Part shown: piece after piece, positions 1 through 27,068 of the stretch
How the letters are laid out: each line of letters begins with the position of its first letter
How positions within the stretch are numbered: the stretch's first letter is position 1
Assembly: GCA_963575745.1 (NCBI GenBank)
Contig: CAUYUJ010000081.1
Span: forward strand, 124,001 to 188,000
DNA: 64,000 bases
DNA from: Prorocentrum cordatum
Lineage: Eukaryota
Direction of reading: 5' to 3'
Program-made: the position numbers and the translations under genes
The notes under the pieces: generated by a model
What the model saw: the letters and a program-made list of their open reading frames with translations, nothing else
Databases searched by the model: none
Told to the model about the DNA's origin: nothing

Positions 1-1008
1 TGTATACCCAGGCAAGTCCCACAAAACCACTGATCCAGGGTCGCGGTAGGAAGCCGTCCAGCAATGGGAGTCCAGAGGGCACCGATCCATGGAGCCTGAA
101 GGGTACCACAGGCTGACTGGGAACAAGGACCAACGGAACAAAAACTGACGGCGAGCCAGTCGCAACGCAAGAAGCGCATCCAGGGTGTGGAGTATGAAGA
201 CAAGACAGAACATCCACAACTGAGATGCGACAGCCCAGATCCGACGAGTGGAAGGGCGTAGAAGAGCACGATGCACGGCAGACCCCGAGGATTATGCACA
301 TCTAAGGTGGCCCAGCGATGCCCAACCGAGTCGTCTAGCACAGAGGGGCGAGGACGCCTTGTACCCGAGACGTGTCCCTCAGAGCCAATGGATCCAGGGT
401 GGCGGCGGAAGGCCGTGCTTCTTGTTTGAAAGGTCCAGGGTGACGGCGGAAGGCCGATCGTTCGGTTAGAAAGTCCAGGGGGAAGCCAGTGGTCAGGCGA
501 GCCGTGGCCCACTGACAGGCCAGGAAGGCCTGGCGGTGAGACAACTACAGCAGGGCCTGAGGCCGCGAGTCCACTGCGGAGAGGCGGTGGACGGTATTGC
601 CGAAACGCGCACCTGGATCCAAAGGCAGGAGGTGCGCGCGCCGGGTGGAGGGCGGCAGATCGCCGCGATTAGGGGCCCGCGGCGCGGCCTGGGCAGCGCC
701 CGCTGGGACTCAGGAAGTGAAACAAGGCGGGGGGAGAGGAGCCGAGTGACAAGAGGGCGTCGGCCACCGGTGGAGAAAGGCAGTGATGCCAGTGGCAAGT
801 GGTCTGCAGGATGCGTGGTGTCACGCGCGGAGCAGACGGCATTACCGAACGGCGCCCCAAGGCCAAGGGTGAGAGAGGGTGCCGCTCAGGGGAGGGGAGG
901 CAGAGCTGCCCCAGGTTGAGGGAAAGGGCGGCAGAGGGCCGCGGTGGCGTGTTGTGAAGCGCAGGTGGTGGGGCGGGCACTGAGGGGCGGTGAGGGCAGA
1001 GAGGGAGT

Positions 1009-4000
1009 TCAGTCTCTCCAGCGGAGTCTCTTTTCCTCTCGATCATCCCGATCATCAGGGTAGCCTCCGCCGCGCTTGCCACCCGCCTGCCAGTGATCCT
1101 CACGCCATCCGTCGCGCCACTCGCCCTGCCAACTGCTCCAGGTGTCCCAGGAACTTGTCGCGCGGTCGCGCCAGCCCGTGTTGCGATAGCCGCCTTTGCT
1201 CCAGTCGTCTGTCTGGGAGTGACGCAGGTAGTTGGCTCGTATCTTGTTCCAGTCGATATCATAGCCCAGCCTCCTGTTCATCTCGCAGGCGTCGTACCCG
1301 CAATCCTTCCAGGCCTCTAGGAAGTTGATGATATCCGAGGGCATGTGTAGTTTCGGGTCCAACTTGGGCGCCCTCCATCCAGGGAGCAGGGTACGCTGCG
1401 TGTTCGCTGTCCACAGTGCGCAAAAGACTGCTCCCAGCTGCGACTGAAGCCTGGGCATGCGACTGGCTGGTGTCTCGTCGGGACGTTCGAGTTCGACGGT
1501 GCCCAGCCTGACTTTGTACATTGGGCCGCCTCCATCAGGGCAGGACAGCATGTTGAGTGCGTCCTGCTCCGAAGAGCCAGTATGGCGAGAGTAATGGGGC
1601 CTCCGCTCAGGGGGCGTCGGGGTGGGCGCGGGAAAGCGCTCGTGCCGCGAGCCGCCACCGTCGCTGGTCCTCTCGTGCCTCGCGGGGTCTCGAGCTGGAG
1701 CCCTCCTGTGATCGGCGTAGGGCGTGTCTTCTGCGACTGAAATCGCGGTATCCTCGCGGCTGGTGTCAGAGCTGCCCGCCGACGGGCTACGCTGTGGGGC
1801 ATCGCCGCCTGAGCGATTATCATCACCCTCCTGGGCCGACTCGGAAGGCGTGGGAGGACGGGCGGGTCCATCCTCTTCGTAGTCGGGCTCCATCTTGTGA
1901 AGGGGGAGCCCGTCTTCCGCGCCTTCACCGCTGTCGTCGTCGGGCGGGTCATGGTGGCCCATGCGTGAGTCGTCTGCTGAGACCTGAGACCTGTCTGTGT
2001 CGGCCGCCACCGGAGTATCTGGCCTGTCGTCGCCACCAGAACACGCGCCAGATGGCGGGGACCCTGCCGGGAAGGTGATCTCTGGCGCCGCGCCAGAGCT
2101 GCCTGTGGGGCTGGGTCCAGGGGGATTGCTTGCTCCGACCTTGGTGAATTGGTCCTGGGCCTTGGCGTCCTCGCCAAGCCACGGGAGGGAATCCACGATG
2201 TCCACAAGTGCCTCGAACCCAATCTGGCTGCTGAGCGGGGGAAGGGCCGGAGGTTCATCTGGATACAGCGGCCTGAAGTCGCGATCCAGAATGTGGTCCA
2301 GGGTGGCCGGGCCAATGTTCCAAATCGGGACCAGACAGCGCCGGCAGCACCAAGTAGCGTTCCATTGGCGCCCCCACCAGGCCAGGGCACGCTTATCGAT
2401 GGGGGGCAGCCCATGTTGCTCGGGAGCTCCTATGTCTTCAGCCGGCTTCCATATGAAGCACCCCGGCGGCGGAGAGCCGGGGTCCCAGACCAGGAGCGGG
2501 GCCCCCTGGGGGCAGGTGTCGCACCGCGCGGAGTAGGTCCGCGTTTGAGCGGCTTTGATACCGAAGCGGTCGTCCCCGATGCGGAGGACCGGAATGGTCG
2601 TATTGGCACACTCGGGGATCTTCATGCCCGTCGGTTCCATGAGGAGGTCATCTAACTGCCTCGTGTCCGCCAGGGGGCTGCAGCCGTAGCCAAGCGGAAG
2701 GAGTCCCAGGGAAGGGAGGGGACTCCCTCTGTCGTTGCCGGTCCCCGATATCTGCTGCTCATGTTCCTTGATTCTGTCGGTGAGCTTCGTTCCGGCAGGC
2801 GTAGGGAAGCCATTGTCCTCGAGGTTCCGTATCCAGCAGCCAGCGCAGTACCAGCCCATGTTGGCGCCGTTGATGTACGCCTGAAGTCTATTCTGAGCGA
2901 CCATCTGGCGCGTGCTGTCGGAGATCCAGGTACCTTCAGCGGCAGTCAGGTGGTCCTTCCCGCAACTGTCGCACGTGTATATGTTGTTCTTCTTTTCAAG
3001 CGCGAGCCTTTCGTCTGGGATGAACGGAGGGTCCAGTCTGGTGCCCAGTGCCGGTGCCGGTGGTGGAGGGGCATTGAGGTCGGTCTGGGACAAGGCAAGT
3101 CCGCCGCCGACGTAGGAAAGGCCCCCAACCCTGTCGTCGGCACCGAGGGAGGCGTCGGAACCAGCCAGTGCGACGTGCAGTACACACACTGAGCAGTCGC
3201 CCGTGTCCAGGCAGCTGGGAGTTGCTGCCGGGACGATCCGTTCGAGAACGATCATCGGCGCTTGCAGCTGGAAGTCCTGTCTGCCCATCTCGCTCCAGGT
3301 CTGCGGGCAGCCGGCTTCCTGCGCAGCCGGGTGGTGATGGGCCAAAGCCACGAGCTTGGAGATGTGTGGTAGCACTGCCTCGATGCGACTGTGCAGGTCG
3401 GCCAAGTCTTCCAGGGTGAGGCTCCAGGTGCTGGCGAACCGGCTTCGGAAGACCTGGTGGACCTCTTGCCAGGGTACGCAGAACCCCAGAATGGCTTCGA
3501 TGACGTCCCCGGCCTGCTCTGCGTGAGAGGAAGGCCATAGAAACACTCGCGGCTCCAGGAACATCAGCGTCATGACCACCAGAAGCGAGCGGGCCTTGCA
3601 GGAATCCATGGGCTGGCCGTCGGTGTCTAAGAGTCCCTGACGGAAATCTTCCATCGAGGAGCCGCACCCCCGGATGATGTCTCCCAGCCCGGTCATTCCA
3701 GGGTGCTTCCGGTGTCTGCTGGGGACCTGACGGAAGAGTCCTTTGGGAGTACACTGGCGGCGCTTCCACAGCGTTGCACGCCTGCCGCTGGCGTGAGGCA
3801 ACGGGGGAAGGGAGTCGTCGGGAATGGCGTAGCTCGCATCCCTCCAGGGGGTGCCTAGGCCGAGCGACCAGACCATTGCTGCCCACAGCGTGCTGTAGAC
3901 TAGATTGGTCGCGTCGAGCCCGAGAGACATGTCGAACAAGAACCCCAGGTGCGACCAAGCCTTGCGGTCGAGCATGCCCGGCTGCCGCGGTGTGTTGGCC

Positions 4001-4400
4001 AACGTGAACTCGTGGGGATGCAGCCCGGACATAAGGTAGATGAGCACGTGGAAGGCCGGCGTCGAGAGGATATCGTGGAGCCCTCCCGAGATTAGCTTGC
4101 CCAGGGCGTCCCAGTCGAAGCTCTCTTCCAGGGGTGCATTGAACCGCTCGGCGAAGCAGGTGGCCTGGGCATCGCGCGCTTTCTTCTTGGCGACGTCCAG
4201 CTCGTTCTGTCCGTTCTCCCCCTTTGCGACACTGCCCCAGGCAGGGGGCGAGGGAATCCACGCGGCAAGGTCCTGGAGTGGGTCGAAGCTGTCGTCAATG
4301 TCCAGGGGGGGCCTGCGGCCCACGGGGGTGCTGCCACGAAACTGGACCCAGAGGCGAAACAGTCCCCCGTACTCTGAGAGCACGCGAAGCTGCGACCATG
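1009..4400 (-). CDS. C-terminal part of element polyprotein: unknown domain, two CxxC...CxxC putative Zn modules, acidic and RG/W-rich low-complexity tail
   Basis: ORF 1009..5007, same frame as the helicase C-terminal motifs. CDSC...CAGC (~2836-2973) and CDTC...CRRC (~2335-2523). Stop at 1009. Confidence 0.6.
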
Positions 4401-4409
4401 TGGCGTTGG

Positions 4410-6230
4410 CGAACATGCGACCGTCTCCCAAGATCCGGATGTTCCGCTTGGCCCTGGTGATTGCCACGTTCAGGCGCTTGGCGTCGTCGACGAAACCCCA
4501 GTTGTAGCTGCCGTTGCTCCGGGTAGTTAACACTATTACGATGTTCGCCTCGCCTCCCTGGCTGGAGTCGATTGTCGTGAGTTTGAGAGCCCCAGTGCCC
4601 ATGTGCTCGCCCGCCACCTGTCGTAGTCCAGGGAAGGTAGAGCTGATGGCAGTGTTAGCATTGTCGTCTTCCCAGAACACCTGTTGCCAGCGGTGAGTGC
4701 CCACCCTGCGGCCTTGGGGGGGTTGTCCAGGGCCAGGAATATCCTGACCACCGCGTCCAGGACCGTCTTTCCCCTTGCCGGGCTGCCCTTTGGCGCCGCC
4801 TCTGGTGCTACGCAGAACGCCGGTGAGGTGACGAGGACCCTGCGGCCATCCGTCCATGAGAATGGCCGTCTGGAGCTGGTAGCCGACCACGATTCTGACA
4901 GCGGTGCCCTTGTGGAGCTCCGGTAGCAGGGCGCGCGCAATATCCACGGCTTGGGCCGCTTCCGGAAGATCGGTGAAGCCTGGTTGTAGCTCGGAGGTGA
5001 CCTCCAAGGAGGGTGTAGGAAACGGTGCTTGTCTGGGCCCAGCGGCGGGTCCAGGGGCTCAAGGGTGGCGCGGAGGTCACTTTCGTCGGAATCGGTGAGT
5101 GTAGCCAGCTTTGCCACTCGTCCAGGTCCCCACGCACGAATGTCTCTCCAGGGGGTGCCCTCAACTATTGGCCGCTCTCTGACCGGATCCAGGATGCCAG
5201 ACTTCATGCCTTTCCCGTAGTAGGCTGCGTTCGGGAAAGCGAGTAGCTGAGGATGCATCCGATAGCAGATTGAAAGGTGAACTACTGAAGACTCCTGGCC
5301 GCGGAGTGCGTGGGACATCCTGTCGAAGATGCTGACGCAGAGCCCTAGTTCGTTCGCCAGTTTGGAGAGCACTGTGGGGGGCAGCTGGTTGGGGTCTCCG
5401 ACGAGGACCACGGTCCCTTCGCTGTTAATCAGATTTACCATGGACATGAGCGCGTGGAGCTCAGTGGCTTGTCCGGCCTCGTCGATGACTGGGAGGAAGA
5501 TTTGGGGGCTGTCCTTTTGACCAAGTGCCTCTGGCGCCTCGTGCGTGGACATGATTATCCTGGCCTGACGTAGTAAGCTCGCCTTGTAGGGCTTGAAGCC
5601 CTGGTTCTTGTCCCCGTCCTGGAAGGGGAACTCGCCGTGGGCGTTTCTGTAGTGACCTTCGGGAGTAAGGTCAACAAGTGCCTCGTTGACCCGGCCCTTC
5701 CTTGCCAGGCGCACGAACTTGTCGGGGAAGCCCGTGTCTTGGTCGAGGCGCCGCTGACGTTGTGCCTCGATCATTGCCAGAGCTAGTTGGTCGACCGCCG
5801 CGGTGGACCCTGCTGCCAAAGCGACAGCGTGTCCAGGGCGTAGGCAGGAACCCCGCATGTCCAGGCAGGCAACTGAGAAGGTGGTCTTGCCAGTTCCGGG
5901 GGGTCCGTGCACTAGAACAGCATGGTGGTTCAGGGTGGCGCGCAGGGCACAGGTCGCATCGCCGTTCGGCCTGTGCTTGTCGATAATCCTGTGGAGCGTG
6001 TCCACGCTGGGAGTAGGACGCACTCTCTGAAAGACGGAGCCTGTCGCATCTGAGATTTCATCGTCAGAGAACGTCTTTAAGCCTTGGGGGAGAGGCGGTG
6101 CCTGCAGCAGCGTGCCGTCTTCGACTGCTTGCAAGTGGTCGGCGTCTGGGACGTTCCGCTCAAGGGTGGCCTCCGCCCTGGCTTTAAGGCTCAGCCCCAG
6201 GGAACGCATGTGTCCCAAGTCGTTGGCCAA
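4410..6230 (-). pseudogene. Upf1/DNA2/NAM7-like superfamily 1 helicase (AAA_11 + AAA_12 type), frameshifted
   Basis: ORF 4536..6230 has VHGPPGTGKTT (Walker A ~5884-5907), IDEAGQATE, VLVGDPNQLPPTV, SIFDRM and YRMHPQLLAFPNAAYY. ORF 1009..5007 continues with TIDSSQGGE, GFVDDAKRLNVAITRAK and ILGD. Confidence 0.92.
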
Positions 6231-7861
6231 GGTTCGATCCGACCGAGGGGCGTGAACAAAGGCAAGAAGGTACGTCAGAGGTGAAAGCTGGTGGCCGAGC
6301 AGATCCGCTGGGTTTTGGCGCAGGTAGTAGATCTGGTCCAGTGCCGAGCATTGCCGCCCAAACTGGATGTCAGAAGGGGCTTCATCTACACGATATCAGG
6401 GGAGATCGTCGCTAGGGGGGCGTCTCGCCTTGGTTTCGTCTTCGTGAAACTGTCCGCTCTTCCCATGGTTGTAGACGACGATGCAACAGTTTGAGGGGTA
6501 CCTGTCGGAAGGGCTGAGACCTAGCGCTTGAGCATCCCTGGGATGGATGTGACCGCCCAGGGCGGGAGGCCACCAGACTGAGACGTCAGCGATTTTGTCT
6601 ACCGTCGGGCCCGTGACTGAAATGTAAAGCCACCTGCTCTCTTTGTCACGTTCCAGGGGTCTGGTCGCGACCTTGCACATTGAGGGCCACTCCAACAACA
6701 TAAATTCCTTACCGATGGGTAGGCGCATGGCGTTCCGCAGCCGAAAGGTGTCCAGGTCCTCCAAGCGCGCATTGGCATCGATCCTGGTGACGCGAACTCC
6801 GAGGGCACAGTTACCCCGTCTGGCTAAATCCTCTCGCGTGGAGCCTCTGCCGTCGTCTACCGTCTCGACCGAGGCTTGGCTTTCGACCCAGGCGATCCCC
6901 CTTAACGTTTGCCCTCGGTCCTGGAGGGAGTAGGGCCATTGTGAGGGGAGTCGGACGGCATTGATTAGTTCCCCGAGCGCTGCCTTGGGGTGGACTCTAG
7001 AGCGCGGGGAGTCCACCGGAACCGAGTACAGGTTGGCGACGTCTGAGGCTGCCTGCGTGGCCAGTGAATCTCCCAGGGCAGCTGGACTTGTCGGAGAGAG
7101 AGCCTCAATCTCCGTCTCACTGCCCTCGGCCAGCTGGACTGTTCGCTGCCGGCAGGGTGGGCTCCAGGCAGGAGGGGGGTGAGACGGCGGGGGCGGAGGG
7201 GGAGGTGTCCCAGAGGAGCCTGCGGCCTGTCCAGGTGAAGGGGGTAGCCAGATGGACGATGTCGCCCGCATCCTGTTCCCGTCGCCGTCCTCGGGCTGTC
7301 TGAGGCCCTCCCTTGCGGCGCCCAGCCTGTCCATCATGTGCGAACGAACCTTCTCCGGCTCCACCCTGGTGCCTCCTGGGCAGTTGTATGGCGACGGATC
7401 GTCCCAGAGGGGGTAGGTAATGGGCACGTGCAGCGCGTCCTCGAGGATTGCGATGCCAGGTAGCGAGCGCACCCCGTCGCGGGTAACCAACGGCTGGACT
7501 GGCAGCCGCGCCAGGCTAACCGCGTGACAGACACCTGGTGGGTAGCGTCGTAGGGGGTCCCTCCGCACACGCACCAAAGATTTCCAGGAGTGGTGAAAGT
7601 GTTCGGGTCTGGCCACCCGTCCTGGTACCGTGCCACCGACATGTCGCAGTGCTTCGCGCTTAGGATGTGTTCAGTGTCGTCGACGGGCTCCTGGCAGATC
7701 TCGCACCAGTGTCGCCAACCGCCGTGGAAGTAGACCCAACGCATCCAGGGACAGAAGCGGGCCAGGAAGACGCGCGTGCCCGCGCGCATTGGCGGCCCTT
7801 CGTCACTGCACGGTAGGCAGGAGGGCCAACGGCGGAGGGGGCCCTGGTTGTTTTTGGGCAT
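6231..7861 (-). pseudogene. Linker segment with a C2H2 (U1/matrin-like) zinc finger and Pro-rich region
   Basis: WCEICQEPVDDTEHILSAKH at ~7645-7710 in ORF 7334..7861. Coding continues in ORF 6396..7616. Confidence 0.5.
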
Positions 7862-8149
7862 TGTCCAGGGTGGGAACCTGTCCAGGATGGCAGCGGAAGG
7901 CTGCGCTTCTTGTGATGGCAGTGACGCTGCGACCCGTCAGGACCTTAGTGTGTCGCGGCGGGGGGGCGATCAGAGAGGGAGGAGGGGGGGGGGATTTTCG
8001 AGGGCATCAACGAACAGCGCAACTTGGTCCAAGTCACAGAGGTCGATGTCCGCGGCAGGAAACAGGGGGGGGGGGGCAGCTGGGAGCCCTCCCAGAAGAC
8101 CCAGGAAGTGACGGCTAGATCGCCGGCGCGACGAAGGGCATCGGCCCAG

Positions 8150-8565
8150 AAGACACCTAGTGTGGCAAGACGGTCAGCTGCTTTGTTGAGGCGACGACGC
8201 ACGGCCTGCCATGTAAGTGTCCATCCGGCTTCGCTGGCTTGCCGAAGGGCGAAGTCCATCTGCTGTGCCAGGTGGAGCCGGCGATAGCGGCCCGTGCCGG
8301 CTCCGTACCGGATGGCGGCAAGATTGTCGCCGACCACCCGGGCACCTCGGAGGGTGGTGTCAAGGTGGGGGAGCAGGGCGAGTCCCGCTCTGCACCCAGA
8401 TGCCTCCGCCGTCTGTGCATTGTCGCAGCCCGGGAGGGCAACAACGGTAACCGCGACGCGCGTAGCCGCGGTGCGGGTCGTGTTTCCAGAGGACAGCTGC
8501 CGCCCCGGAGACCTTGTCGTCTCCCCCAATTCGGCGAGCCCCCCCGTCGAAGGTGAGCTCAAAGG
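8150..8565 (-). pseudogene. Ribonuclease H domain (archaeal/plant-L1-like subtype), one frameshift near 8460
   Basis: ELTFDGGAR...GAAAVL in ORF 8360..12565, then NAQTAEASG, VVGDNLAAI and WQAVRRRLNKAADRLA in ORF 7945..9105. All four acidic catalytic positions (D, E, D, D) are recognisable. Confidence 0.9.
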
Positions 8566-8604
8566 GCCATTGGGCCGCATCGGCAGCGGGGAGCGGGGAG
8601 TCTC

Positions 8605-8850
8605 TGACGGTGATCTCCTCGCCAGCTTCCATGTCCCTGCTGGCTCTGAGCACCAGGGTATGCAGGTCGCAGAGTCGGCAGTAGCTCTTGGTCCAGAGGG
8701 CACTGGGGGACCTGTCTGTCCTGGGGCAGGGGAACCAGCCCAACCCAGGCGGCATCCAACTCGCTCTGGTGTCGCCCGTTTGGAGAACGGCGAGCCGATC
8801 CCCACTCCGCACGATCCTGGTCGTGACAGGGAGGCGCCGGATTTCCCCTC
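8605..8850 (-). CDS. Degenerate SET-like domain
   Basis: LPVTTRIVRSGDRL resembles SET N-terminal xFATRDIxxGE. LVLRASRDMEAGEEITV resembles SET C-terminal ALRDIxxGEEITxDY. The NHS motif is not intact. Confidence 0.5.
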
Positions 8851-9253
8851 CAGCGCGTGGAGCTTGTCTGCCGAGATGCGGACCAGCGGCCCCCTGAATG
8901 CGCAGCAGGTGCGGGCCTTGGGGATTGCGAAGTTGACAGGGGAGCAGCATGGGGGCCCAGACTGCAGTTTCGTCCGCCGGTGCAGCAGGGGCCTGCCCTT
9001 CTTGTATGTCTTTTTCCTCCTCATTGTCTTCCTGGAGGTCGGTGTCTGGTACGGAGATCCCCTGGACAATGATTCTGGCGGCTTCGACAGCTCCGATGGG
9101 GGCACAGTCCAGGTTCACACAGTATCTAAAGGAGATCTGGTGTAGAAGGCGGCAGACCAGTCTCTGGTGCTGCCCCCTGGAGCATATCGCGGTGGGAAGG
9201 TCTCTGGGGTGGTCAGGGCCTTTGGTCTTTTCCCAGGCGAGGGCGGCGGCGGG

Positions 9254-9307
9254 GCACCAGCCCCACACGTGCTCAGTAGTGGCTTCTCCCAGGCCGCAGA
9301 GAGGGCA
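9254..9307 (-). CDS. CCHC zinc finger of LINE ORF2 (zf-RVT-like)
   Basis: CPLCGLGEATTEHVWGWC, followed by AAALAW. Confidence 0.85.
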
Positions 9308-10299
9308 GGCTCCGTAGAGTCCTTGCCGTATGGGAACGGTGATGTGCCCGAGTTGCCCTCTTCTCTCCGTAGCAAGTGGACGCAAGTCCTCGGGCAAAGC
9401 GTCGTCGCCAAGGAGGGGCCAGAGGGAGGCCTCTCCGGTCCAGGGCCCGAGGCACGAGTCGCACCAGGCCTGACCGCGATCCCGTTGTCCAGCGGTGAGC
9501 CAGACTCTATTGGCCATCCTGCCGCAGCCGCACTGGTGGGGGATCCTGTCAGCGACGCTTCGTCTACGCGCGGATCCGGGTAGTCCGTTGGCCAGAACGC
9601 GGAGGACGTGGCGCGCCTCGGTGAAGGAGGCGCAGTGCCCGAGAAGGGACCATTTCGCACCGTCTGTTTGAGCCCACCTACGCTCGTGGCTGGTTGTGGA
9701 GAACCAGGAGCTCACCACGTGCCCGTGGAGCTGCGTCCAGGCCGCAACGTAAACTACGCGCCCGAAGTAGCGGGCCCGGCGCCTAGGGGGCTCTCTCAAG
9801 GCGCGATTGAAGAGGTCAGCGGCCCTGGCGTCGGTCAGCACTTTGGAGCCGGGCCTGCGTGGCTCATCCCGAGGGGCGAAGTCCCGCGCCCATTTCACGA
9901 GTTTGTTCCACCTTCTCCCCGCCTTATGTCTCGCCTGTAGGGCCCCCCACAGGTCGTCAAGGGCGTGCGCCCTGGCCGCGATCGCACGCGAGGTAGCAAC
10001 CGGGCATTTGGGGCAGCCAGGGACTTGGAAGCGGATGCCCAGACCAGTGAGGATGTTGTCTGGGATCCAGGAGGCAGAGGCAAGACCAAGGGCTACCCGC
10101 AGGTGTGCTCTGAGTGCCCTTTCTTGCACGGTGTCAGGGAGGGAGTAGTGGGATGGGTACGGGATGAGCGCGATGAGGCAGGTGTTCCAGGCGAGGGCGG
10201 TTTTAGTGGGAGACATGCTTGAAAGGTGGAGGGCCATGGCCCGGCCCCGTAGCTTGGGGAGGGGTTTGCCCCAGGTGCCGGCGACGAGAGCGTCGAGTT

Positions 10300-11560
10300 G
10301 TCCCTTTGTCATTCTCCCCCTGGGCGGTTGATTTTCCCTTTCGGCAGCCCTAGATACGAAGGCGCCGAGATAGGGCCACTGGGGACGGACGGCGGATGAG
10401 CCGAAAGGGGTGAAGCCCGTGGTGCGTCTCCACCAATCGTGGTTGCTGGCGGGGACCAGGGCCGTTTTAAACTTGCACATGCATGGGCTGGTCCAGGGGG
10501 AACACTGAGCCGCAATACTGGAGCCAGCAGCGCGACTGATCATTTCCAGGAGGAGCCCGGCAGGCAGACCCGTAACAGTTGTGGTGGTGCCATCATCGCT
10601 GAAGTCCACCGGGGCGTTGTCCAGGTACTGCCTGATGTTGATACCGGATGGGGCTGCAATGCCCCTGCACTGGTGGGCTTCGACGAGGAGCCCCGCCGCT
10701 CTTGCGAGCCAGGGCAAGGCGATGCCGGCACGCAGTGATTGGGCGGTGGCGCCCAGCAAGGCAGCGAGGTCGTCCACGTAAGTCGGATCGTCCGCCCCGG
10801 TGATGTCGGCCAGGGCGCTGATGAGAGGGTCGTATCCTAGGCACCAGAGGAGCGGGGAGGCGGTGCCTCCCATTCCGATAGACTGTAAGAGCGTCCTTAT
10901 TCTGCTTTTGCACCTACCTTTGCAGGTGCGTACGCTCCTGTTACCGACGAGGCAGTCCACGGAGTGCAGGAGCCAGGTCGAGAGCTGCCAACGCCTCGCC
11001 AGCTGCCCCATCCACTGCAGGGATATGCGCTCGAAAGCTTCGTTTTGATCGCAGAAGAGAACAGCCGTGCTCGGGGCAGGGTCTAGTTGCCGAGCGGCGT
11101 CCAGTATATAGCGGTCAACAGCTTCTTGGTGTGCGCCAAGCAGGGCGGTCCAGGAGGGCCCGGGTTCGGTGTCGGGGACGGGATCCAGGGCAAGATGGTT
11201 GGTGGCAGCGGCAATGTTGGGGCCGCATTGTCCCCCGCGCTTGGCAGCTTGATTGGGGCTAAGCCTGGGTTCAATCACAGGGCCAAGGCAATCGGCAATG
11301 GTCGCCCCATGCAGTCTCCGTCGGCAAGTGGGGAGCTGCAAAGGACGCATGTCGTTAGGACGCTCTGCGGCCGGTTTCTTGCCGATCCAGACCAGAAGGT
11401 CGACGGAGGGGCCAAGGACCAGGTCCAGGAGCCCTGGGTTCAGTGCCGCGGCGTACCAGGCTTGGGCGAGGAGTCCAGCAACAAAGCGCGCACCGGGATG
11501 ATACAGCTCGCACGGCTCACCGTCAAAACCGGGGGCGCTGCCGCTAGGCCCCAGCACGAG
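10300..11560 (-). CDS. Non-LTR reverse transcriptase domain
   Basis: Within the 1401-aa ORF 8360..12565: SAPGFDG, MRPLQL, LSPNQAA, FCDQNEAFERI, SIGMGGTASPLLW, YVDD (10769-10780) and WPYLG. Confidence 0.95.
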
Positions 11561-13802: not shown

Positions 13803-13851
<49 letters not shown>

Positions 13852-17716: not shown

Positions 17717-20700
17717 CTAATGTCCGCGTCCGCAGGGCTCGAGCACTGTCACCCAGGTGGGGACCGAAGTGAAAAGGAAACCTGCCTCATCGCTGGTGGT
17801 GACCTCAACGGCCCCGCCAGCCGCTATTGCGGCGAGTAAGTATTCTCCGGGCTGTAGGACGGTTTCGTAGTCCCGTAGGCCACTTCCCTGCGACATGCTA
17901 GGTACCGTATTGGGTGCGCCCCTGCTCATCGCCTTGGCGTTATCTCGGAGCCAGTCCCCCGTAATGATAGGTGGGGCAGCTCTGGTGTTGGCTGGGTGTG
18001 AGGTACCGTCCAGGCCCTCTGGGAGTGGCCAGAGTCGAGTTAGTAGCTGGGCGTCCGCTGAGCCGACCGATGCAGAGAAGAGCCGTAGCGTACTGTGTCC
18101 AGGGAGCCAAGCGTCAGGGCGCATGCTGCGTGGGCGAGTTCCTCCCAGCTGCGTCCCGTGCCTGTCGAGAGTGGTGATCTCGAGGACTTGGGGCTGAATG
18201 GCGCGTCTGGGGGCCTGTCGTACAGAGATGCTGGCCAGCGCGTCCACATGCTCTTGCAGTTCCCTGGATGTCGCAGCCGCTCTGTGCATGGGGTCCCTGC
18301 TAAGTGTGGCGGTGAAGATCCTGGCCGTCTGGGTTCCGATCACAATACAACTGGTGCCCACGAAGGCTGCTGCCATGGCGTCGGCCGCAGCTAAGCGTAT
18401 GCGAACTTGCGTCATGTATCTGTAGTCAGAGACGTCTGGGGACCAGGCGTACACGGTGGAAACCTGTTCGACTGTGCCAGGACCAGTCGTGGCCTCTACG
18501 GCTTGCAGGACGTCCTCGGGCCGTGTTTGTCCCATGTCAGCGAGATTCCATCTTAGGTGGAGGCCGTCCTCGGGGTCAGAGAGGCGCACAAATGAGGGTC
18601 CTCCATCCCACGGTCCTTCCAGGAGGATGCGGCGCGGTCTTAGTGCCATGGAGGAGGAGGCGCCCCCAAAGACCCGCGGAAGCTCGTCTCGGAGGTGCCT
18701 CAAGACGGGGGCGGCAATCCGTTCTGGAGTGGAGATCAGGAGAAGCCCCGTCCCGCAAATTCCGACTCTGTGTCCCATAGCTCCAGCTGATGTGGAGGCT
18801 ACAGAGTGGGCTATGCAGATCGCTCTGGGGGGAACTGGGACGTGTACACAGTCACTTGTCTCGTGTGTTCTCCAGACGCATGCCGTCTGGTAGGCCAGCA
18901 TGGTGGTTTGAGCTGCCGCCTGCAGATTATCCAGGGGGGCACGTATGCCGTCCGCACAGCTCGTGGGTCTCGATGCTCTGCAGCGGAGGACGTGGTGGAA
19001 GAGCATCTCGAGTCCCTGGCACCTCAGGAGCTCGTCCCGGGGGAGCTGCACTCTCGTGGTGACCCAGTTGGCTGCGATCATCCCGTTGTGGGATCGCCAT
19101 AGTTCATCCCTCCACCTCATGATCTGCGCAACGACGCCGTCATTGCCGCTCTCAGGGGTTAGGATGTGTAGCGCATCAGAGGTGTCTGCTGCATTGGTGG
19201 GCTGGGCTTGCCTGTTCGGTAGGGGTGTCCAATCGGCACGAGATGGGTAATCTTGCTGGCGGCTCGGTATCCCCGCTGCGCGTTTGCCAGGGCTGCGAGC
19301 TCGACCGGATCCGGTCCTCCAGGTGACGGCACTCCCTCGGTGGCCAGGGCGACGAGACAGCATGGGCTGCCCGCGGCGGTAGCTGCCGTCAGGGCGGCAT
19401 CCATGTGTTGAGCTAGGGCATCTACCACGAGGATTGTTGGGGCGGCGCCCCCCTGAGGCTGGTTCCTGCGCTTCGAGACTACTGCTTTGATCTGCTCCCA
19501 GGCGTCTGGGCCTGCGAGGGCAAAGGTGACTCCAGTCTCGTCCGCTACACGTTCGCCGAGGTAGGTGCTTCTGGAGATCACCAGATCGGCTGCAATGTCT
19601 CGGACGGCCGCTGTGAGCAGCCCTACCGGGAACCGCCCAGGTCCCCATCCTCATGGGTTCATCCTCTGGGGGGTTCCGTCCCAGTAGCAGTGCCCATCTT
19701 CCGACAGTGATTCGCGGGGCTTGCCGTATCCTATCTGTCCTGTTGGTGGGACCAGGGGGTCGCTGCGGAGACGGGGTCCCAGGTTCCTGCGCGCTGTTGT
19801 GGGTGTCGTCGGAGTCCATGCCGCTTCCACCGTTCCCGCCGTCAGGTGGGGTCCCATCCACTTCCATCGGGGCATGACGTGCCTCCTGCGCGGTTCTCCT
19901 CTCCGTAACGTGCGCGTGGATTCTGCGCATGTCGGAAAGTGTGACGCATGTGTGGGGACGTCGGATGGAGAGTGTTTGTGCTCTGAGGCAGTCCAGATCT
20001 GGGGCCAGGTGCCTGAAGGCATCGGCTAACTCTTGCAGGCTCAGGAAGGGCTGCAGTGGGAGAAGGGTCCCGTCGCGGAGCTGTAGGAGGTCTGGTGGTA
20101 CCGCAATGTCCGCGGCGTCGGCATCTCGCGTTCGGCCTGGAATCCTTACGGAGACGCTACCCCTATCGACAGAGCGGCAAATGGGACAGTTCACTGGGGA
20201 ACATCTTCCGTGGGACAGGGCCTGCGCTGGCTGGCTAATCCTCCACTGTCTCAAGCATTCGGCGTGATACAGGTGGCCGCATGGTACCAGGGCTTCCGCG
20301 AAACCTAGGATGTCCTCGCTGCAGATCATGCATCGAGGGGTTCCTACCTCCCGGTCCCAGGGAGGAACTTCCACGGCGCCCATGCTTTCCGGAGGGAGCC
20401 TGACACTGTCCCCAGGAGGGTGGCTGAGTTGGGATAAGCCATCCCCCAGGCTCTCGATGAGGGCTCTGGCGGACATGCTGGCGTCGAGGTGTGTCAGACT
20501 GGCTCCTTCACTGAGGTGGGATATGAGGGCCTGGATTTGTGAGTTGCTGAGGTCGGAGTATGGAGCTAGATCGGCATCCGGGAAACCCCTCCGAAGGCAG
20601 GCCACGAGGTCTTGCGGCGTGTGCATCTCATTCCTGGTCATCCAGCGGTAAAGAACGTCGTAGGGTCGGGAGTCCAGGGCCCGCGCAGTCAGCACTGGCT

Positions 20701-21568
20701 TGAGGAGGGGGAAGTAGTGTGGGGCCAGGCAGAGCCACAGGGCGCTAGAGATCCAGGGACCCGGTTGTCGATCTACCCTGTGTTCCAGGAGCGTGCTTTG
20801 TGCGAGGCACTGTGCCTGGCCCCCATTGACGGAGGTCCTTTCTCCGGGGGCTGGCATGGTACCTCTGCCTGCCTCCTCTTCATCCCGCTGCCTGGCGTCG
20901 AGAGTGCGCATGAGTCTGTCCAGGAGCCCTTCTCTGGCACTGCCAGCCGGCAACCTGCCCTGGGGAGTAGCGAAGCTTGCCCGGTTGAGCATCTGTCTTA
21001 TATCCGCGTGCCATGGCGTGGTTGTGCTTGCGGCTTCCACAGTTTCGGTTTCTACTTCAGGGGGTGGTCTGCCTTCGCTCGCGGGCCCGCTGTTTTTTGG
21101 GTTTGACCTCGGTCCGGTACTGGCCATTTGCGCCCGAGCCCTCGCTCCAGCCTCCACCGCCTGCCGATCTCCAGACAGGATGGCAGTCTGAAGGGAGCCG
21201 CTTGCATCCAGGTGCAGCATCATTCGCTCCTGGAGCTGGGGTGCGATGTAGCCGCCTACCTCGGGGGCCTCGAGCGAGGCACCAGCTGCCCTGGACGCCA
21301 TATCTGCTTCGGATGCGAGCGCTAACTGAGCATCCCTGTAGGAGCTGACGCCTCGTGTTCTCCACCAGGCTGCTGCATGTTCGATAATAGCGGTGCTGAG
21401 GTTGCTGCTCCTGAAGGCTAGTTCGAGGACATTTCGACCTCTGTTGGTGGCTGTGCCCCATATAAAGGGGACCAGGATACTGCTCCAACGCATGCCAGGG
21501 GTGACGGAGTTGCTTGCGACCCTCGCCCTGATTCTCCTCACCTCCTCGATGAATGCGTCTCGCTGCAA
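17717..21568 (-). CDS. Upstream (ORF1-like) region of element with RING-H2 finger at 20174-20332
   Basis: 1283-aa ORF containing CMIC...VPCGHLYHAECLRQW...CPICR (C3H2C3 pattern). A local frameshift is likely, because ORF 19159..19581 reads more protein-like. Confidence 0.75.
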   Translation of the reverse strand: MQRDAFIEEVRRIRARVASNSVTPGMRWSSILVPFIWGTATNRGRNVLELAFRSSNLSTAIIEHAAAWWRTRGVSSYRDAQLALASEADMASRAAGASLEAPEVGGYIAPQLQERMMLHLDASGSLQTAILSGDRQAVEAGARARAQMASTGPRSNPKNSGPASEGRPPPEVETETVEAASTTTPWHADIRQMLNRASFATPQGRLPAGSAREGLLDRLMRTLDARQRDEEEAGRGTMPAPGERTSVNGGQAQCLAQSTLLEHRVDRQPGPWISSALWLCLAPHYFPLLKPVLTARALDSRPYDVLYRWMTRNEMHTPQDLVACLRRGFPDADLAPYSDLSNSQIQALISHLSEGASLTHLDASMSARALIESLGDGLSQLSHPPGDSVRLPPESMGAVEVPPWDREVGTPRCMICSEDILGFAEALVPCGHLYHAECLRQWRISQPAQALSHGRCSPVNCPICRSVDRGSVSVRIPGRTRDADAADIAVPPDLLQLRDGTLLPLQPFLSLQELADAFRHLAPDLDCLRAQTLSIRRPHTCVTLSDMRRIHAHVTERRTAQEARHAPMEVDGTPPDGGNGGSGMDSDDTHNSAQEPGTPSPQRPPGPTNRTDRIRQAPRITVGRWALLLGRNPPEDEPMRMGTWAVPGRAAHSGRPRHCSRSGDLQKHLPRRTCSGRDWSHLCPRRPRRLGADQSSSLEAQEPASGGRRPNNPRGRCPSSTHGCRPDGSYRRGQPMLSRRPGHRGSAVTWRTGSGRARSPGKRAAGIPSRQQDYPSRADWTPLPNRQAQPTNAADTSDALHILTPESGNDGVVAQIMRWRDELWRSHNGMIAANWVTTRVQLPRDELLRCQGLEMLFHHVLRCRASRPTSCADGIRAPLDNLQAAAQTTMLAYQTACVWRTHETSDCVHVPVPPRAICIAHSVASTSAGAMGHRVGICGTGLLLISTPERIAAPVLRHLRDELPRVFGGASSSMALRPRRILLEGPWDGGPSFVRLSDPEDGLHLRWNLADMGQTRPEDVLQAVEATTGPGTVEQVSTVYAWSPDVSDYRYMTQVRIRLAAADAMAAAFVGTSCIVIGTQTARIFTATLSRDPMHRAAATSRELQEHVDALASISVRQAPRRAIQPQVLEITTLDRHGTQLGGTRPRSMRPDAWLPGHSTLRLFSASVGSADAQLLTRLWPLPEGLDGTSHPANTRAAPPIITGDWLRDNAKAMSRGAPNTVPSMSQGSGLRDYETVLQPGEYLLAAIAAGGAVEVTTSDEAGFLFTSVPTWVTVLEPCGRGH

Positions 21569-23716
21569 CCGCTCCGCCTGAGAAAGCCCCTCCTCCAGGA
21601 CTGGGGGGGAGGTCTTTGGGGAGGCCTGGCAACTACCCCTTCTAAGCCCGCGTGGCTGTCCCTGCCGCTGCGGGGGTTGTCCACGTCCATGGGGGCGTGC
21701 ACTTCGCTAGGAAGCCCAGAACGCTCTTGGTCCTGCCCCCTGCTGCCTGCCTCCAGTCGTCTGGTGACGGCGTCCGTGACGAGGTTTCCCAGGAGGGTAC
21801 CCTGCCCAATTTGGGGATGTATTGGGCGCCAGTCAGTGCGTGCGGCTGCTCGCAGCGCCCTTCTCATTGCTTCAGCTGTTTCAGAGTAGGGGCTGTCTCT
21901 ATTGTGCCACCAACGTCTGCTGAGATCGGTGTGATCACGTGCGTCGCTTATAGCGCGGTCAAGGTGGTCCCCGCCGATGGTGTATCTTAGCCAGCAGAGG
22001 TCGTCCAGGTGCACCCGGGTGTTCGGTCCAATGGGAACGGATGTAGCTGTTCTGCTGGGTAGTGGGGGCCTCCGGTATGTTTGTGGGTGAGTGTCTGTGC
22101 CGCCGTAACCACCCATCGAGCCGACCATGGGGGTGGGACCTGATGATGTGCCGAATTTCCTGGCAGGCGTTTAAAGCCCAGGAGCCTGGCGCTGAGCAAA
22201 GTAAAGCCAGCGAGATCGACGCTGTGCGGAGTTGCCCATCGCTCCCGACCTCTTCGAGGCCTCCTGAGTCTTCGTATGACCAGATTTCAGGTAGGCCTGC
22301 AGCGTGGGCCACCATATGCCTCCAGGCTCCCAGGAGTTCACCCACAAGCCACGTCGGGGTGAAGTCGGAGGGGCCAGGCGGCGTGGGGGAGTACAGGTGC
22401 TCGGCGATTGGGGCGTATCGCATGCCCGCTCTGACGAGCTGAATCAACAGAGTCCCGCCCAGGAGGTCGGGGGCGTGCCTGTTGGGTGGCTGGCCAAGGT
22501 CTGCTCCTGGGTGACTCTGAGGTGAGGCGTCTGCTCGCGGCTCCTCTGGGTTGTAGCTCCAGGGGATGGCCAGGTCTGTGGCAAGTGATGCAGGTTTGTC
22601 CTGTGGGATCTCGGAGCATCCAGGTGCCACAGAAATTACATCTCTCCTGGGCAGAAAAAGTCCCGCAGCCGTAGTCTGTGAGCTGTGGTGGACCATGGCC
22701 AAGCGTCGTCGCTACTGTCGCTTCCTTGGATGAGGACTCCAGGGATGCCCGCGGAGCTGGCGGGTATCCCCGACAGGGCGGCTCTACCCATGGGACTGGG
22801 CCTCTACCTGCTTGTCGTCTCGAGTGCACGTCACTTCCCATGCGCTCGAGGTTCCCTCTCGTGATGGCCCACTGCCTGACGTCCCCGTGGTCTGGAAAGT
22901 GGACTATGTTTTGCCTGCGCTCGTGAATCAGGACTCGATGGGCGTAACCCATGACCTCGTCATCCATGGAGTCCTGCGTCCCGTCTGCTCGGTTGGGGCC
23001 ACCGATGTGCAGAGGGGCAGAGTCCTCAGGGGCTCTGGTGGGCATGAGCATCCTATCTGTGTCATATCCGCTCGGGAGCTCCATTCCTATGTCGCAGTAG
23101 TGTGCAGCTGCGGCCATGGCAACGTACTCGAGCCGTGCTAGTTGCCTCTCAGCCACTGAGGGGTTGGCTGCGTCCGCTCTTTCACTCCTTATACTGGGAT
23201 CATGAGTAATGCTCGCAAAGCGGAATGCGAGGACCTGGACTGGGTCCGGTTGAACGCCTCCCAGACGCCCTTCATAGTCTCCTCCAGCGATGGACCATGC
23301 CAGCCAGGTGTGGTCCAGAATAGCGAGAATTGGGCCTGAAGTGGCGACCTCGGAGTAACGTCCAGGGAGGGCTGGTTCAACGGGAGCCGTGCGCATGGGG
23401 CTGTCAGCTCGTATGCCTGGGTGGCCTGGGCGGTGCCTCCTCCACGCGTGGTGTATGAGGAGCTCCAGGTTGCTGGTCTCCCGAGATGTTCTCGGCGCTC
23501 CGCGGTTGGGGACCTCGCGCCATGGCCCCTCAGTGTGCACAAGGTGCCGGCGTAGGGCCCTCATGGTGCCCCCCCTGCCAGAGATCCTGGCGTCTGCAAC
23601 GCGCGGTCCACAAATGGGTCCGTCCGCCTCCCGGCTGGCCGCCCAGTCAGCATTCGTGTGCCCAGTGGCGTCCAGCCACCGTGCGTGGAGGTCCGCAGCG
23701 CTTTGCCCCCTGCTCC

Positions 23717-26675
23717 TCAGCGCTTGGCTGTGGTCGTCAAGGTCTGAGGGGGTGGGCGGGTTCTCCATCCGCAGATCATCTTCCAGGGCGAGATCTGGAG
23801 ATGGGTAGGAGGGGGGGTCCGTGAGGGCGGGGCCCCTGCGCGCCGTGTGGCTGACCTCGAGGGGCGCGCCGCTGTTCGTCCAAAGGAGGGGCCCCCGCAC
23901 TCTGCCCTGTGACGAGTAGTCAGGTCCACGACGGCATTCACCGAGCGCAGCGTTAAGAAACTCGAGCCCAGGGGGCAGGTCGGGAGGGGAGAAGTCGGGG
24001 GAAGAGCTGGTGGACGAGGGGGGAAAGGCACGAGGAGATCCATCCGCCGGGATCGGAGACCTTGCTCGATCGATCGGGGATCGATCGGGTCGACATGAGG
24101 AGCGGCCCCGACCGCGGGATCGAAAGCAAACCTGGGGGTGCTGGGCGAACGAGGAGGCCCGTCAGGCCCTCCAACGGCCAACCCCATGGCAAGACAAAGG
24201 CGGTCGATCATCCCTGTGGAGGAGGGCGCCTCCCTGCGATCACTGGAGCCGGGGGCCCCCGACTCTCGCACCCCTCCCTCAGGCGCGAGGCAAGGCCCGT
24301 GGCCTGCTCCTGGGAGGCACCCGGAGGCCGCGGTATCAGCGCGTATACTGAAGACGCTGTCCCGTCCCGCCTCTGTGGGGGCAGGGTCACAGGTCATGTC
24401 TTCCCTCTGCCAACGATCCCTGGGTTGGACGCCGTGCGCCTCTCTCTGCGTGCCGTCGCCCGGTCCAGGGTAGCGACGGAAGGTCGCACGTTCTGTGTGT
24501 ATCGCGGGGGGGGGGCTCATCCCCTCCTTGAGTGTGGTGCCTAGCGCTCTCGTCTCCAGTGGGTCGACTGGAGGCGGCAGCGCTGGGGTGCACATGTCCA
24601 CCGTGCCCCCGTCCAACCCCCGTGGGGTAGGGTCCCTGTTCCTAGCCCCCCCGTCCGTCTGTTCCCTGGGTCGCAAGCCTTGGGCGTCATCCAGCCTTCC
24701 GCCATCCGCTCCAGGGTAGCGACGGAAGGTCGCACTGTTTGGGTGTATATCAGGGATGTCTGCATCCCCCCCTTCTCCAGCATTATGCCTGCCGCTCTCG
24801 GGCGCACGGGGGCGGTCAACTGCTGCGTCGGTGGCGGGGTGCCCTTCGCGGGTGGAAGGAGGGGCTCCACCGCTTAGCTCGCCAGCGGGGACGGCCTCAC
24901 CCAGCGCGGGCGCGCCCGGGGGGGGGGGGGGAGGTCGGCGGTGGGTTGGCGTGAGCCTTGACGGGGAGCGCAGGGGCTGCAGGCAGCGGCTTGCCCGCAC
25001 CTGTTGCCTGCGCCCTCGTGAGCGTCCCCTGAGGATATCAGCCCCCTGTGCACGACGTCCGAGTCAACCTGTCCCCTGGGAGGACCGCGGCGGATGTTCG
25101 TCTGTTCCTCGTCGGTTGTCCTAAGCGCGACAGGATCCGCGGGGGAGTTTTGTGCCGAAGCGGGGCCCTCTCCCCCCGTAGCCCTGGTGCCGCCTGGGGT
25201 CGTTTCACTCTGCCCGACAGCGCCTGGAGCGAGGGAAGTTGGACGTCCTGCAGCGGGCATGGGCGCGGCGGAGGTGAGAGAGGCGGTCGGGCTAGACAGG
25301 AAGGCTTCGTGCCCAAGGTCATCGAGTCCAGGGGGGCGGCGGAAGGTCGCAGCGTCGGGTTGTCCTCTGCCAACGTTGCCACGATCATCCTCCACGGGGT
25401 CAGCTCCCTGGTGCATTCTACCCCTACACACCGTTCCCTGGGCTGAACATCGCGGGCGTTCCTCTGCCCGTCGCGGTCCGCTCCAGGGTAGCGACGGAAG
25501 GTCGCACGTTCTGTGTGAATTGTGGGGATAGCCGCACTACCCCCTCCTTCAAGGCCACGCCTGCCGCTGTCAGGCTCCTGAAGGCGGCCTGGAGTGGTGT
25601 CAGAGTCGAGGTGCGCGCCGCAACCTGAGGACCTGTCTCCCATGCTCGAACCGTTGTGGGGAGCAGCCTCACTCGGGGCGGCCGCCTCCAGATAGGGGGG
25701 CACGGCGGAGTGAGGGCAAGAGCCCCTAGGATGCGTGACGGGGCCGAGGCGACGTGACTGCCCGTCTCCCCCCACTTCGCCTTCAGGGGCGCTTGCTGGG
25801 GGTGTCGGGTCCATACAGCCCCCATCCACGCCATCGAGGTCTCTGCGTCGGGAGCCGAGGGCAACTCCCTGCTCGTCGCGAGACTGTCCGAGAGGAGGGG
25901 GGTTCGCGGGAGAATAAACTGCTTCAGGAGTGGGCCCGTCGGCCCCCGTGAGCCTAGCATCGCCATGGGCGGTCCCGCTGTGCCCAGCGCTGCCTGGAGA
26001 AAAAGAGATTGGGCGTCCAGCCGTGGGCAAAGGAATAGTGGGGGCAAGGGGAGGGTAGCTGGGCGGGAGGGCCTCATGTCTGACAATACCTCCAGGATGG
26101 CGACGGAAGGTCGCGCTTTCAGTATGAAACGGAGGGCTGAACGTATCAACCCCGTCTACCGCAACGCATCCGTCGACCTCAAGTCCAGGGTAGCGACGGA
26201 AGGTCGCACGTTCGGTGCGTATCACAGTGCTGCGGGGATCAGCCCCTCCCTCCGATTGGCTGGGGATCATTTGTCCTCGCGTGCCCGAAGCATCGGCCGA
26301 AGCGCTCCCATTCCAGGGAACAGAGAGCGACGGTTGCCCCGGCGGGATGGTGTCCTGAGATCCAGGGCGAATCTGTCCAAAGTCATTCGGCCCAGTGGTC
26401 CCGAGGCCGACATCGGATGATGCGGCTCTTTCCCCCGCAGGGATGACAGGATTGTCGCCGATCGATCGCAAGCTATCAGGCCGACCATCCATGAGGCAGC
26501 GGTCCTGATCCGATCTGAGCCTCGGGCCGCTGAGCCCGTCTGCGCGGCGGGCAGGCGTTCGCGATGGCTGGCGCGCCCGGTGCCGGAGGGGGTCCAGGGC
26601 CGTGGGCCCCCGGCGCAGCGTCTGGGCGCCCCCTTGAGCGGCGGGAGACTGCCCCGGAGAGGGCAGGCCCACCAA
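23717..26675 (-). repeat. Internally duplicated low-complexity 5' region of element with six copies of the xTExATFRR(Y/H)PG motif
   Basis: Motif copies start at 24464, 24710, 25327, 25482, 26091 and 26184. Longer diverged duplicates also occur (about 25130-25345 vs 25900-26115). Confidence 0.8.
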
Positions 26676-26679
26676 ACGG

Positions 26680-27033: not shown

Positions 27034-27068
<35 letters not shown>

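Follow-up and report, generated by a model that had tools for sequence, protein, structure and literature searches.

A repeated sense-strand motif and its dispersed core word as a putative cis-acting signal of a LINE-like retroelement in Prorocentrum cordatum

The stretch of DNA analysed here (the window; positions 1-64,000, taken from contig CAUYUJ010000081.1 of Prorocentrum cordatum) begins within a retroelement of the long interspersed nuclear element (LINE) type. The element runs on the minus strand, which is called the sense strand throughout; the pattern of the motif is given for the plus strand. It carries nine copies of a short motif, and the last six sense-strand bases of that motif, CCTGGA, recur as a dispersed core word from one end of the element to the other. 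An original prediction, made from the letters of the window, had proposed the motif as a cis-acting RNA or DNA signal of a single element. For the motif as for the hexamer, the base-by-base reading applies to one degenerate copy of the family, the one in the window.

In sense order the element consists of a 5' leader, a tandem-repeat region, an open reading frame (ORF) with a RING finger, ORFs of unknown function, an ORF (pol) with an APE endonuclease, a reverse transcriptase (RT) and an RNase H, a spacer, an ORF with a zinc finger and a superfamily 1 (SF1) helicase, and a 3' region. Pfam matches were obtained in this same order for the RING finger, the endonuclease, the reverse transcriptase, an RNase H-like domain and the SF1 helicase (AAA_11/AAA_12). 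The three pol matches lie in order on the minus strand, each below the Pfam curated cut-off (Exo_endo_phos, E 1.6e-4; RVT_1, E 1.4e-4; RVT_3/RNase H-like, E 2.4e-3). The arrangement of endonuclease, RT and RNase H within one ORF is that of a retrotransposon without long terminal repeats (non-LTR). Eight database proteins with 37-61% identity map to 13391-8059; P0002-P0005 and P0007 among them carry PF00078, and P0006 carries PF03372. The nearest Atlas clusters are RVT_1 (score 0.95). All eight relatives end shortly after RNase H, within a few tens of residues of one place, and this identifies the stop codon found there as the point where pol naturally ends. Downstream, behind a spacer and with an ATG of its own, the helicase occupies a separate ORF of about 2,280 codons. 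In its N-terminus a zinc-finger-like CxxC...H...H stretch (about 7645-7710, minus strand; weak zf-DBF match, E 0.27) is a candidate nucleic-acid-binding part. The pol ORF starts at about 13415 and the ORF upstream of it stops at about 14142; a (GA)n microsatellite lies between the two on the sense strand (13803-13850).

Coverage of the family was determined with contigs of four public runs over positions 7001-27000 (n = 5919, 1119, 244 and 569). Depth extended across the whole of 7001 to about 26729 in the four runs, and in all four of them loose contig ends with unlike flanks occurred at 26729, which is therefore taken as the 5' boundary of the family. A large number of scattered copies that share a defined end and have variable flanks is again a non-LTR feature. 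The claim that the motif ties both ends and the helicase to one element agrees with this coverage. It also agrees with the density of CCTGGA, which is 2.1-5.0 per kb in each part of the element from base 1 to 26729, helicase ORF and 3' region included, and falls to background (0-3 per 2 kb) beyond. Self-comparison revealed no second copy of the element in the window. DNA of its relatives was found neither with pol in viral contigs nor with the alignment of eight pol sequences in genome contigs. The window copy is a pseudogene: pol is split across three frames, with two frameshifts (about 8457 and about 12503-12517), and the helicase has an in-frame stop (6396-6398) and a frameshift (4536-5058). 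Relative to the window copy, one-base indels are found in most other family members at 12503, 17738, 19647, 22573 and 24623.

Table 1. Positions of the element, its landmarks and the motif copies in the window
Feature	Positions	Strand	Basis and remarks
LINE-like retroelement, 3' end cut by the window start	1..26729	-	Pfam, eight pol relatives, loose contig ends, CCTGGA density
Near-copy of the dinoflagellate spliced leader	26680..26698	-	sense CCGTAGCC-TTTGGCTCAAG, DinoSL minus two bases; 5' boundary about 31 nt farther out
First ATG of the element	26490..26492	-	484-codon frame; reads copies 26184, 26091 and 25482 as (A)TFRR(Y/H)PG
Motif copy, 'a' type	26184..26206	-	pattern, profile, frame comparison; sense CGACCTTCCGTCGCTACCCTGGA
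Motif copy, 'b' type	26091..26113	-	pattern, profile
Tandem unit A (motif b, spacer of about 600 nt, motif a)	25482..26183	-	unit alignment
Motif copy, 'a' type	25482..25504	-	pattern, profile, frame comparison
Motif copy, 'b' type	25327..25349	-	out of frame with its neighbours; stem mismatch A.C on sense (G.T on plus)
Tandem unit B, homologous to A	24710..25481	-	unit alignment
Motif copy, 'a' type	24710..24732	-	pattern, frame comparison
Decayed motif copy, 'b' type	24555..24577	-	position in the tandem unit; -0.6 bits
Motif copy, 'a' type	24464..24486	-	pattern, frame comparison
Decayed motif copy	24308..24330	-	position; 1.9 bits
Stop codon of the APE-RT-RNase H ORF	7945..7947	-	8/8 relatives end nearby
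Motif copy in the 83-nt spacer between pol stop and helicase-ORF ATG	7881..7903	-	stem GCAGC/GCTGC, two compensated pairs
First ATG after the pol stop	7859..7861	-	opens a zinc-finger-like N-terminus leading into the helicase
Stop codon of the helicase ORF	1009..1011	-	ORF reading
Motif copy, 3' region	434..456	-	553 nt beyond the helicase stop
Motif copy, 3' region	393..415	-	41 nt from copy 434; shortened third unit ends at 474
Dispersed core word CCTGGA	1..26729	-	word counts; 87 sense (47 as CCCTGGA), 78 outside the nine strong copies

A pattern scan gave nine plus-strand matches with 0-2 mismatches, exactly where they had been predicted (Table 1), against a chance expectation of 0.01; nine were reached in 0 of 100 shuffles, and a looser pattern returned the identical set. 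In a profile made from the nine extended copies these score 28-46 bits and the next best match 5.7 bits. This bimodal distribution implies that motif copies are either well kept or nearly lost. No copy was found in the other 37 kb of the window, either by the pattern scan or by self-comparison. The decayed copy reported near 24308 stands as a positional homologue, though not by its sequence (see its profile score in Table 1), and another decayed copy, at about 24555, was placed by its position in the tandem unit. Variation had been described as almost all C/T; eight of the 23 columns vary (five C/T, two A/G and one A/C), so that transitions in all but one is the better description. The proposed translation (A/T)FRR(Y/H)PG fits seven of the nine copies, the others being 7881 (FRCHPG) and 25327 (FRRPPG). 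Copies 393 and 434 do lie beyond the helicase stop and, by their distance, in different frames, as had been stated.

On the sense strand the conserved block spans about 35-40 nt. It begins with an A/C-rich lead (e.g. ACACAGAACGT), continues as GCGAC-CTTCC-GTCGC and ends with TACCCTGGA; the middle part is predicted to fold as a 5-bp hairpin with a CUUCC loop. Exact-pattern scans of genome contigs and of viral contigs gave 0 matches each. Metagenome contigs yielded 17 loci, which were rejected as family members: each has a single match, surrounded by unrelated sequence that for the most part looks bacterial, most stem positions fail to complement each other and a second core copy is present in none, as befits chance matches. 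The metagenome scan shows that the motif is not a common sequence and is uninformative on the motif outside the family.

The level at which the copies are constrained can be read from the tandem 5' region. Units A and B align over their full length with 55% identity (358/653), and the motif copies inside them are identical at 43 of 46 positions. The four 'a' copies (26184, 25482, 24710 and 24464) are identical across 24 nt, eight third codon positions included. A comparison of synonymous sites, suggested together with the original prediction, came out in favour of nucleotide conservation: in the three copies whose flanks were compared, third codon positions differ at 0 of 24 in the motif against 62 of 126 (49%) in the flanks (Fisher p 1.2e-6). 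Over all positions of the same three 'a' copies the differences are 0 of 72 against 150 of 378 (40%). Copies 7881, 434 and 393, which lie outside long ORFs, are kept comparably well (28-37 bits), and copy 7881 has retained its stem at the price of an Arg-to-Cys change. The six 5' copies occupy three reading frames in the window copy. An extra G behind 24623 is present in 42.5 of a depth of 61.9 in run X1 and in all depth in run X3, so that copies 24710 and 24464 fall in different frames in most other family copies. In database fragment P0012 a module read as VRPSVATLE is followed by one read as ATFRRYPG. The case in which all copies stand in frame and vary freely at synonymous sites, which had been named as pointing to a peptide repeat, is thus not the one found, given the three frames of the 5' copies and the three copies outside long ORFs.

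The core word is enriched far beyond the nine strong copies. Inside the element the 87 sense occurrences of CCTGGA stand against 18 in antisense, the other 37 kb having 11 and 20; for CCCTGGA the counts are 47 and 4 inside and 3 and 4 in the rest of the window. Over 200 third-order Markov simulations CCCTGGA averaged 18.4 occurrences, with 29 as the highest count. By codon phase of the local ORFs the 47 observed copies divide into 12, 17 and 18. Codon-shuffle tests were performed on seven long ORFs in which no strong copy lies. These contain 67 CCTGGA, compared with 24.8±4.3 after shuffling of synonymous codons (maximum 35 of 300 shuffles) and 15.8±3.6 after shuffling of codon order; the reverse complement is not enriched (13 against 10.7 and 9.7). 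Every phase taken singly is enriched (14 observed against 3.2 expected, 19 against 10.1 and 34 against 11.3). Of all hexamers counted in the seven ORFs CCTGGA deviates most (z 9.5 and 12.4); the three that follow overlap with it, and words unrelated to it reach at most 4.9. The excess over the null models is therefore strand-specific and frame-independent, a feature of words such as Chi and KOPS or of packaging signals. One-letter neighbours of CCTGGA occur 3-36 times each, and flanking bases contribute little beyond (C)CCTGGA(C).

An origin of the word by CpG decay was rejected: the partner word CCCAGA occurs 27 times against 87, and strand-symmetric deamination of CCCGGA is thus not the explanation. 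Counts of the PW dipeptide in the pol relatives are as expected, so that the proteins cannot reveal whether these relatives share CCTGGA. In an ORF of unknown function two overlapping core words stand in tandem (ACCCTGGACCCTGGAAGC; 14451-14464, minus strand). Another CCCTGGA, at 7864-7870, lies two bases ahead of the helicase-ORF ATG. In a limited literature search no paper on this hexamer or motif was found, the hexamer combined with 'dinoflagellate' returning primer lists only, and searches of the literature on dinoflagellate retrotransposons with helicases, and on 5-hydroxymethyluracil, gave no motif of such kind.

For the hairpin, 92% of the stem cells are paired and two pairs are changed on both sides, in copies outside ORFs. 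Pairing and compensation together were equalled in 19 of 500 shuffles, and slid controls were 20-62% paired. This is weak evidence that a hairpin of 4-5 bp is kept by compensatory changes.

The copies exist, constraint acts on their nucleotides, and the signal is specific to one strand and to this element and independent of frame. Its restriction to one strand, its indifference to frame and what it costs in codon choice together point to recognition of a single strand, most simply RNA, by a protein. The explanation that we favour, with a rough probability of 0.45, is that the motif serves the retroelement as a cis-acting nucleic-acid signal, borne by the sense strand in two tiers, which would mark the RNA as 'self' for the assembly of a ribonucleoprotein (RNP). 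The first tier would be formed by nine composite sites of about 35 nt, each with an A/C-rich lead, a hairpin of 4-5 bp with a CUUCC loop and then YAYCCUGGA. Six of them lie in the tandemly amplified 5' region, one in the spacer ahead of the helicase ORF and two in the 3' region. The second tier would be the approximately 80 bare CCUGGA cores, spread across every ORF and codon phase at about one per 300 nt. A protein would bind the core word, with the composite sites as high-affinity entry points. The candidate reader may be encoded by the element, as the product of the first ORF or the zinc-finger/SF1 helicase, or it may be a host factor. Binding would mark the 27-kb RNA, rather than DNA, as 'self' for RNP assembly and reverse transcription. 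The earlier proposal of a cis-acting signal stands in so far as nucleotide-level constraint goes (invariant third positions, copies outside long ORFs, differing frames and a hexamer in all phases); the specific function put forward here is a proposal drawn from sequence.

In a somewhat different and rather unlikely version, the element would write a polar 'self' word in its own sense strand, about once per 300 nt and at the expense of codon choice, with a few composite sites toward its two ends and ahead of the helicase ORF, and its own machinery would load on, coat or track the RNA or the first-strand cDNA. The readers of such a word might again be the zinc-finger/SF1 helicase or the first-ORF protein.

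Several results weigh against the favoured explanation. Pfam finds no RNA-binding domain in the element, only the RING finger, the helicase and the weak zinc-finger match, and the frameshifted copies that were read base by base amount to one. Fold energies of the motif are no better than those of shuffled sequences (z -0.94 to +0.56), and the hairpin appears in six of nine minimum-energy folds. In predicted folds the dispersed hexamers are not more unpaired than composition-matched hexamers (0.363 against 0.383, p 0.28), and their spacing is Poisson-like (CV 1.07), without regularity. A host-wide habit of codon context may lie behind the hexamer excess. As to the 5' copies, the frame that reads FRRYPG is open for 45 nt on each side in nine of nine copies (the other frames in 4/9 and 2/9), and the first ATG of the element opens this frame. 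Substitutions between the tandem units peak at third positions of this frame (86/219, 91/217 and 118/217 in the units; 40/126, 48/126 and 62/126 in the flanks), and short database ORFs retain ATF(R/C/S)R(Y/F)PG. The open frame and the excess at third positions suggest that the six 5' copies probably overlap a real or former ORF.

This last set of observations is also what would favour a peptide repeat. The motif would then encode (I/F)xTER-ATFRR(Y/H)PG as part of a repeated module, about 45 residues long, of the first ORF, and copies 7881, 434 and 393 would be dead relics or parts of ORFs that are broken in the window copy. Besides the open frame, its ATG and the third-position excess, the copies show synonymous variation in the Thr and Arg codons that immediately precede the 23-mer (ACA/ACC/ACT; CGT/CGA), and five of the six motif instances in database fragments P0010-P0014 are in the FRRYPG frame. 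Against it, the 'a' copies are invariant at third positions, conservation of the three copies outside ORFs is as good as that of the coding ones, copy 7881 preserves its stem rather than its Arg, and frames differ among copies both in the window and in other family members. No homologue of the 5' ORF was found among proteins of 312-996 aa or of 997-2845 aa, searches in which low-complexity words crowded the candidate lists; matches are limited to database fragments of 63-123 aa. The GC content by codon position is flat in the 5' ORF (0.69/0.64/0.66), against 0.66/0.56/0.71 in pol, and differs from that of the helicase too. A peptide repeat would, moreover, leave the frame-independent hexamer unexplained. 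We regard it as improbable for the motif as a whole; a TFRRYPG repeat is possible solely for the 5' copies.

Alternatively, the composite sites might direct RNA processing or translation of downstream ORFs, as acceptor regions for trans-splicing or as sites of ribosome retention and re-initiation. Spliced-leader trans-splicing uses acceptor regions made up of a pyrimidine-rich tract and a subsequent AG. The motif is rich in pyrimidines, and an AG follows within 1-20 nt after nine of nine copies; copy 7881, in the short spacer between pol stop and helicase ATG, has an AG 1 nt and the ATG 19 nt downstream. In addition, the element contains a spliced-leader-like sequence near its 5' end (Table 1), whose presence means that its RNA has probably met the trans-splicing machinery. 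The spliced leader of dinoflagellates, DinoSL, is the 22-nt sequence DCCGTAGCCATTTTGGCTCAAG (PMC12014239). The pattern used to find its near-copy was matched in 0 of 100 shuffles; there is no ungapped match to DinoSL within three mismatches, and the sequence sits inside, not at, the 5' boundary of the family. The near-copy may mean that RNA of the element underwent trans-splicing at some time and was then copied back, or that the element makes some other use of the leader; it would also point to a dinoflagellate or a relative as the probable host. Against an expression signal, no strong copy lies ahead of the pol ORF, near whose start no match exceeds 6 bits. Furthermore, six copies lie inside the first ORF and two far past the last stop, with no ORF left to express. 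The ATG distances after the other copies are irregular, and the approximately 80 dispersed hexamers are left out of account. It is thus doubtful that expression is what the motif serves.

A signal at the level of DNA or cDNA would be read as plus-strand TCCAGG...GCGAC-GGAAG-GTCGC, in first-strand cDNA or in duplex DNA. Its role might be that of a template-switch or re-priming site, a hairpin priming the second strand, or a recombination hot spot that reshuffles modules; even taken jointly these seem a poor prospect. All nine stems pair on the plus strand, copy 25327 having G.T there and A.C on sense, and the 5' region is a tandem array. Two joints in X1 contigs break within 10 nt of the sense 3' ends of motif copies (24800 to 26184; 26082 to 24709) and imply family members with other module arrangements. 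These joints may, however, merely mark where the similarity of the modules ends, and each is represented by one contig, at a depth of 5-8. Two joints in X2 (24935 to 7983 and to 7975) lie in poly-C runs and were rejected, together with the depth spike of X2 at 24343-25009, as low-complexity matches. In the contigs of the four runs no joint ties 7881 to a 5' copy in a template-switching topology, and DNA hairpins of 4-5 bp are marginal. That the motif has no function, its identity being due to gene conversion or recent duplication and the hexamer excess to a genome-wide quirk of codon context or mutation, is very improbable, even if the reading rests on one copy of one family and two module copies have decayed (24308 and 24555), since the identical stretch has sharp edges and covers no more than about 24-35 nt of units that are otherwise 55% identical, unlike a conversion tract, the excess is limited to one word and one strand and exceeds its neighbours, deamination of CCCGGA is inadequate and the other 37 kb of the window are at background.

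The surroundings of the 5' boundary are themselves repetitive. Contig depth is very high in the bin 26344-27000 (2024 in X1 and 1249 in X2), and at the loose ends at 26695/26697 the continuation agrees among contigs (0.7-0.87). A second abundant repeat family seems to share 33 nt (26697-26729) with the element and then to diverge. A (GTC/GAC)n microsatellite, long and imperfect, lies beside a G run immediately upstream of the element (26994-27290). It is joined there, just upstream, by a short-repeat family around the palindrome-like GTTCTTAGAAC (27470-27975; six 33-nt copies and two 64-nt copies, 89% alike). In 28000-64000, 18 stop-to-stop frames (277-562 codons, chosen from 48 of at least 220 codons) gave no Pfam match and no recognisable gene. 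An Rfam search of 1-28500 on both strands (E up to 1) returned mir-598 as its sole match (E 0.96), outside the element.

How a LINE protein chooses its own RNA, the so-called cis preference, is a long-standing question. The answers known so far invoke one 3' hairpin or mere proximity during translation. The element described here, unusually long and with several ORFs, appears to carry its identity in a short word repeated many times through its coding sequence, for which it pays in codon choice, and in a few strong sites. Should other copies bear this out, it would provide a testable recognition code of one hexamer and a few candidate proteins, as well as a sequence signature by which members of the family can be found in poorly annotated genomes of the dinoflagellate type. 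The element also combines a spliced-leader-like sequence with an SF1 helicase as a separate ORF.

Compared with known systems, the element agrees in all defining features with none: not with the 3' hairpins of stringent LINEs, the 5' monomers of L1, Chi and KOPS or dispersed packaging signals. The transcription-regulating sequences of nidoviruses have a template-switch layout by which subgenomic copies are made. As in that layout, the 5' region holds a conserved core that recurs shortly before a downstream ORF, that of the helicase. Unlike it, pol is not preceded by a copy, several copies lie in the first ORF and the 3' region, and the contigs hold no joint from 7881 to a 5' copy; a nidovirus-like rule, with a core before every downstream ORF, was rejected accordingly. 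The L1 element of the mouse has tandem 5' monomers that are non-coding promoters. The diverged tandem 5' units found here (about 700-770 nt), each with conserved short sites, resemble these. In contrast to L1 monomers the units come after the first ATG, within a frame that is open and shows an excess of third-position substitutions, and they may therefore be coding; the idea of a non-coding monomer array was given up on these grounds. The site also recurs at two other places in the element.

LINEs of the stringent type, such as UnaL2 of the eel and LINEs of the zebrafish, have stem-loops in their 3' tails that are recognised by their own ORF2 protein (PMC1636434, PMC4176376). The likeness would consist in a short stretch of the 3' region that is conserved and has a putative small hairpin, which in those LINEs is thought to give the RNA its identity for reverse transcription. 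Copies 393 and 434 lie in the 3' region, the end of the element being beyond the window. The element differs in having nine copies, of which most belong to the 5' region and one falls between two ORFs, a stem of just 4-5 bp with fold energies no better than shuffled, a bare core word dispersed through its ORFs and no partner SINE (short interspersed nuclear element) that could be seen. The TRAS and Jockey LINEs of insects carry SF1 helicase domains in fused form (PMC6338049). These are likewise non-LTR elements with an accessory SF1 helicase; in the present element, of about 27 kb, the helicase is a separate downstream ORF and not a domain of a polyprotein.

The last comparison is with words rather than hairpins. 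Chi and KOPS are polar, over-represented words of bacterial chromosomes, and dispersed packaging signals occur in single-stranded RNA viruses. A limited literature search found no such polar word described for a retrotransposon. Unlike these systems the element has no known cognate protein, and its hexamers are neither preferentially in predicted loops nor regularly spaced. Like them, it has a short word on one strand, independent of frame and present over the whole replicon, together with a few stronger composite sites, and it encodes an SF1 helicase. If the polar 'self' word is real, it would be the retrotransposon counterpart of Chi and KOPS or of the dispersed packaging signals of viruses.

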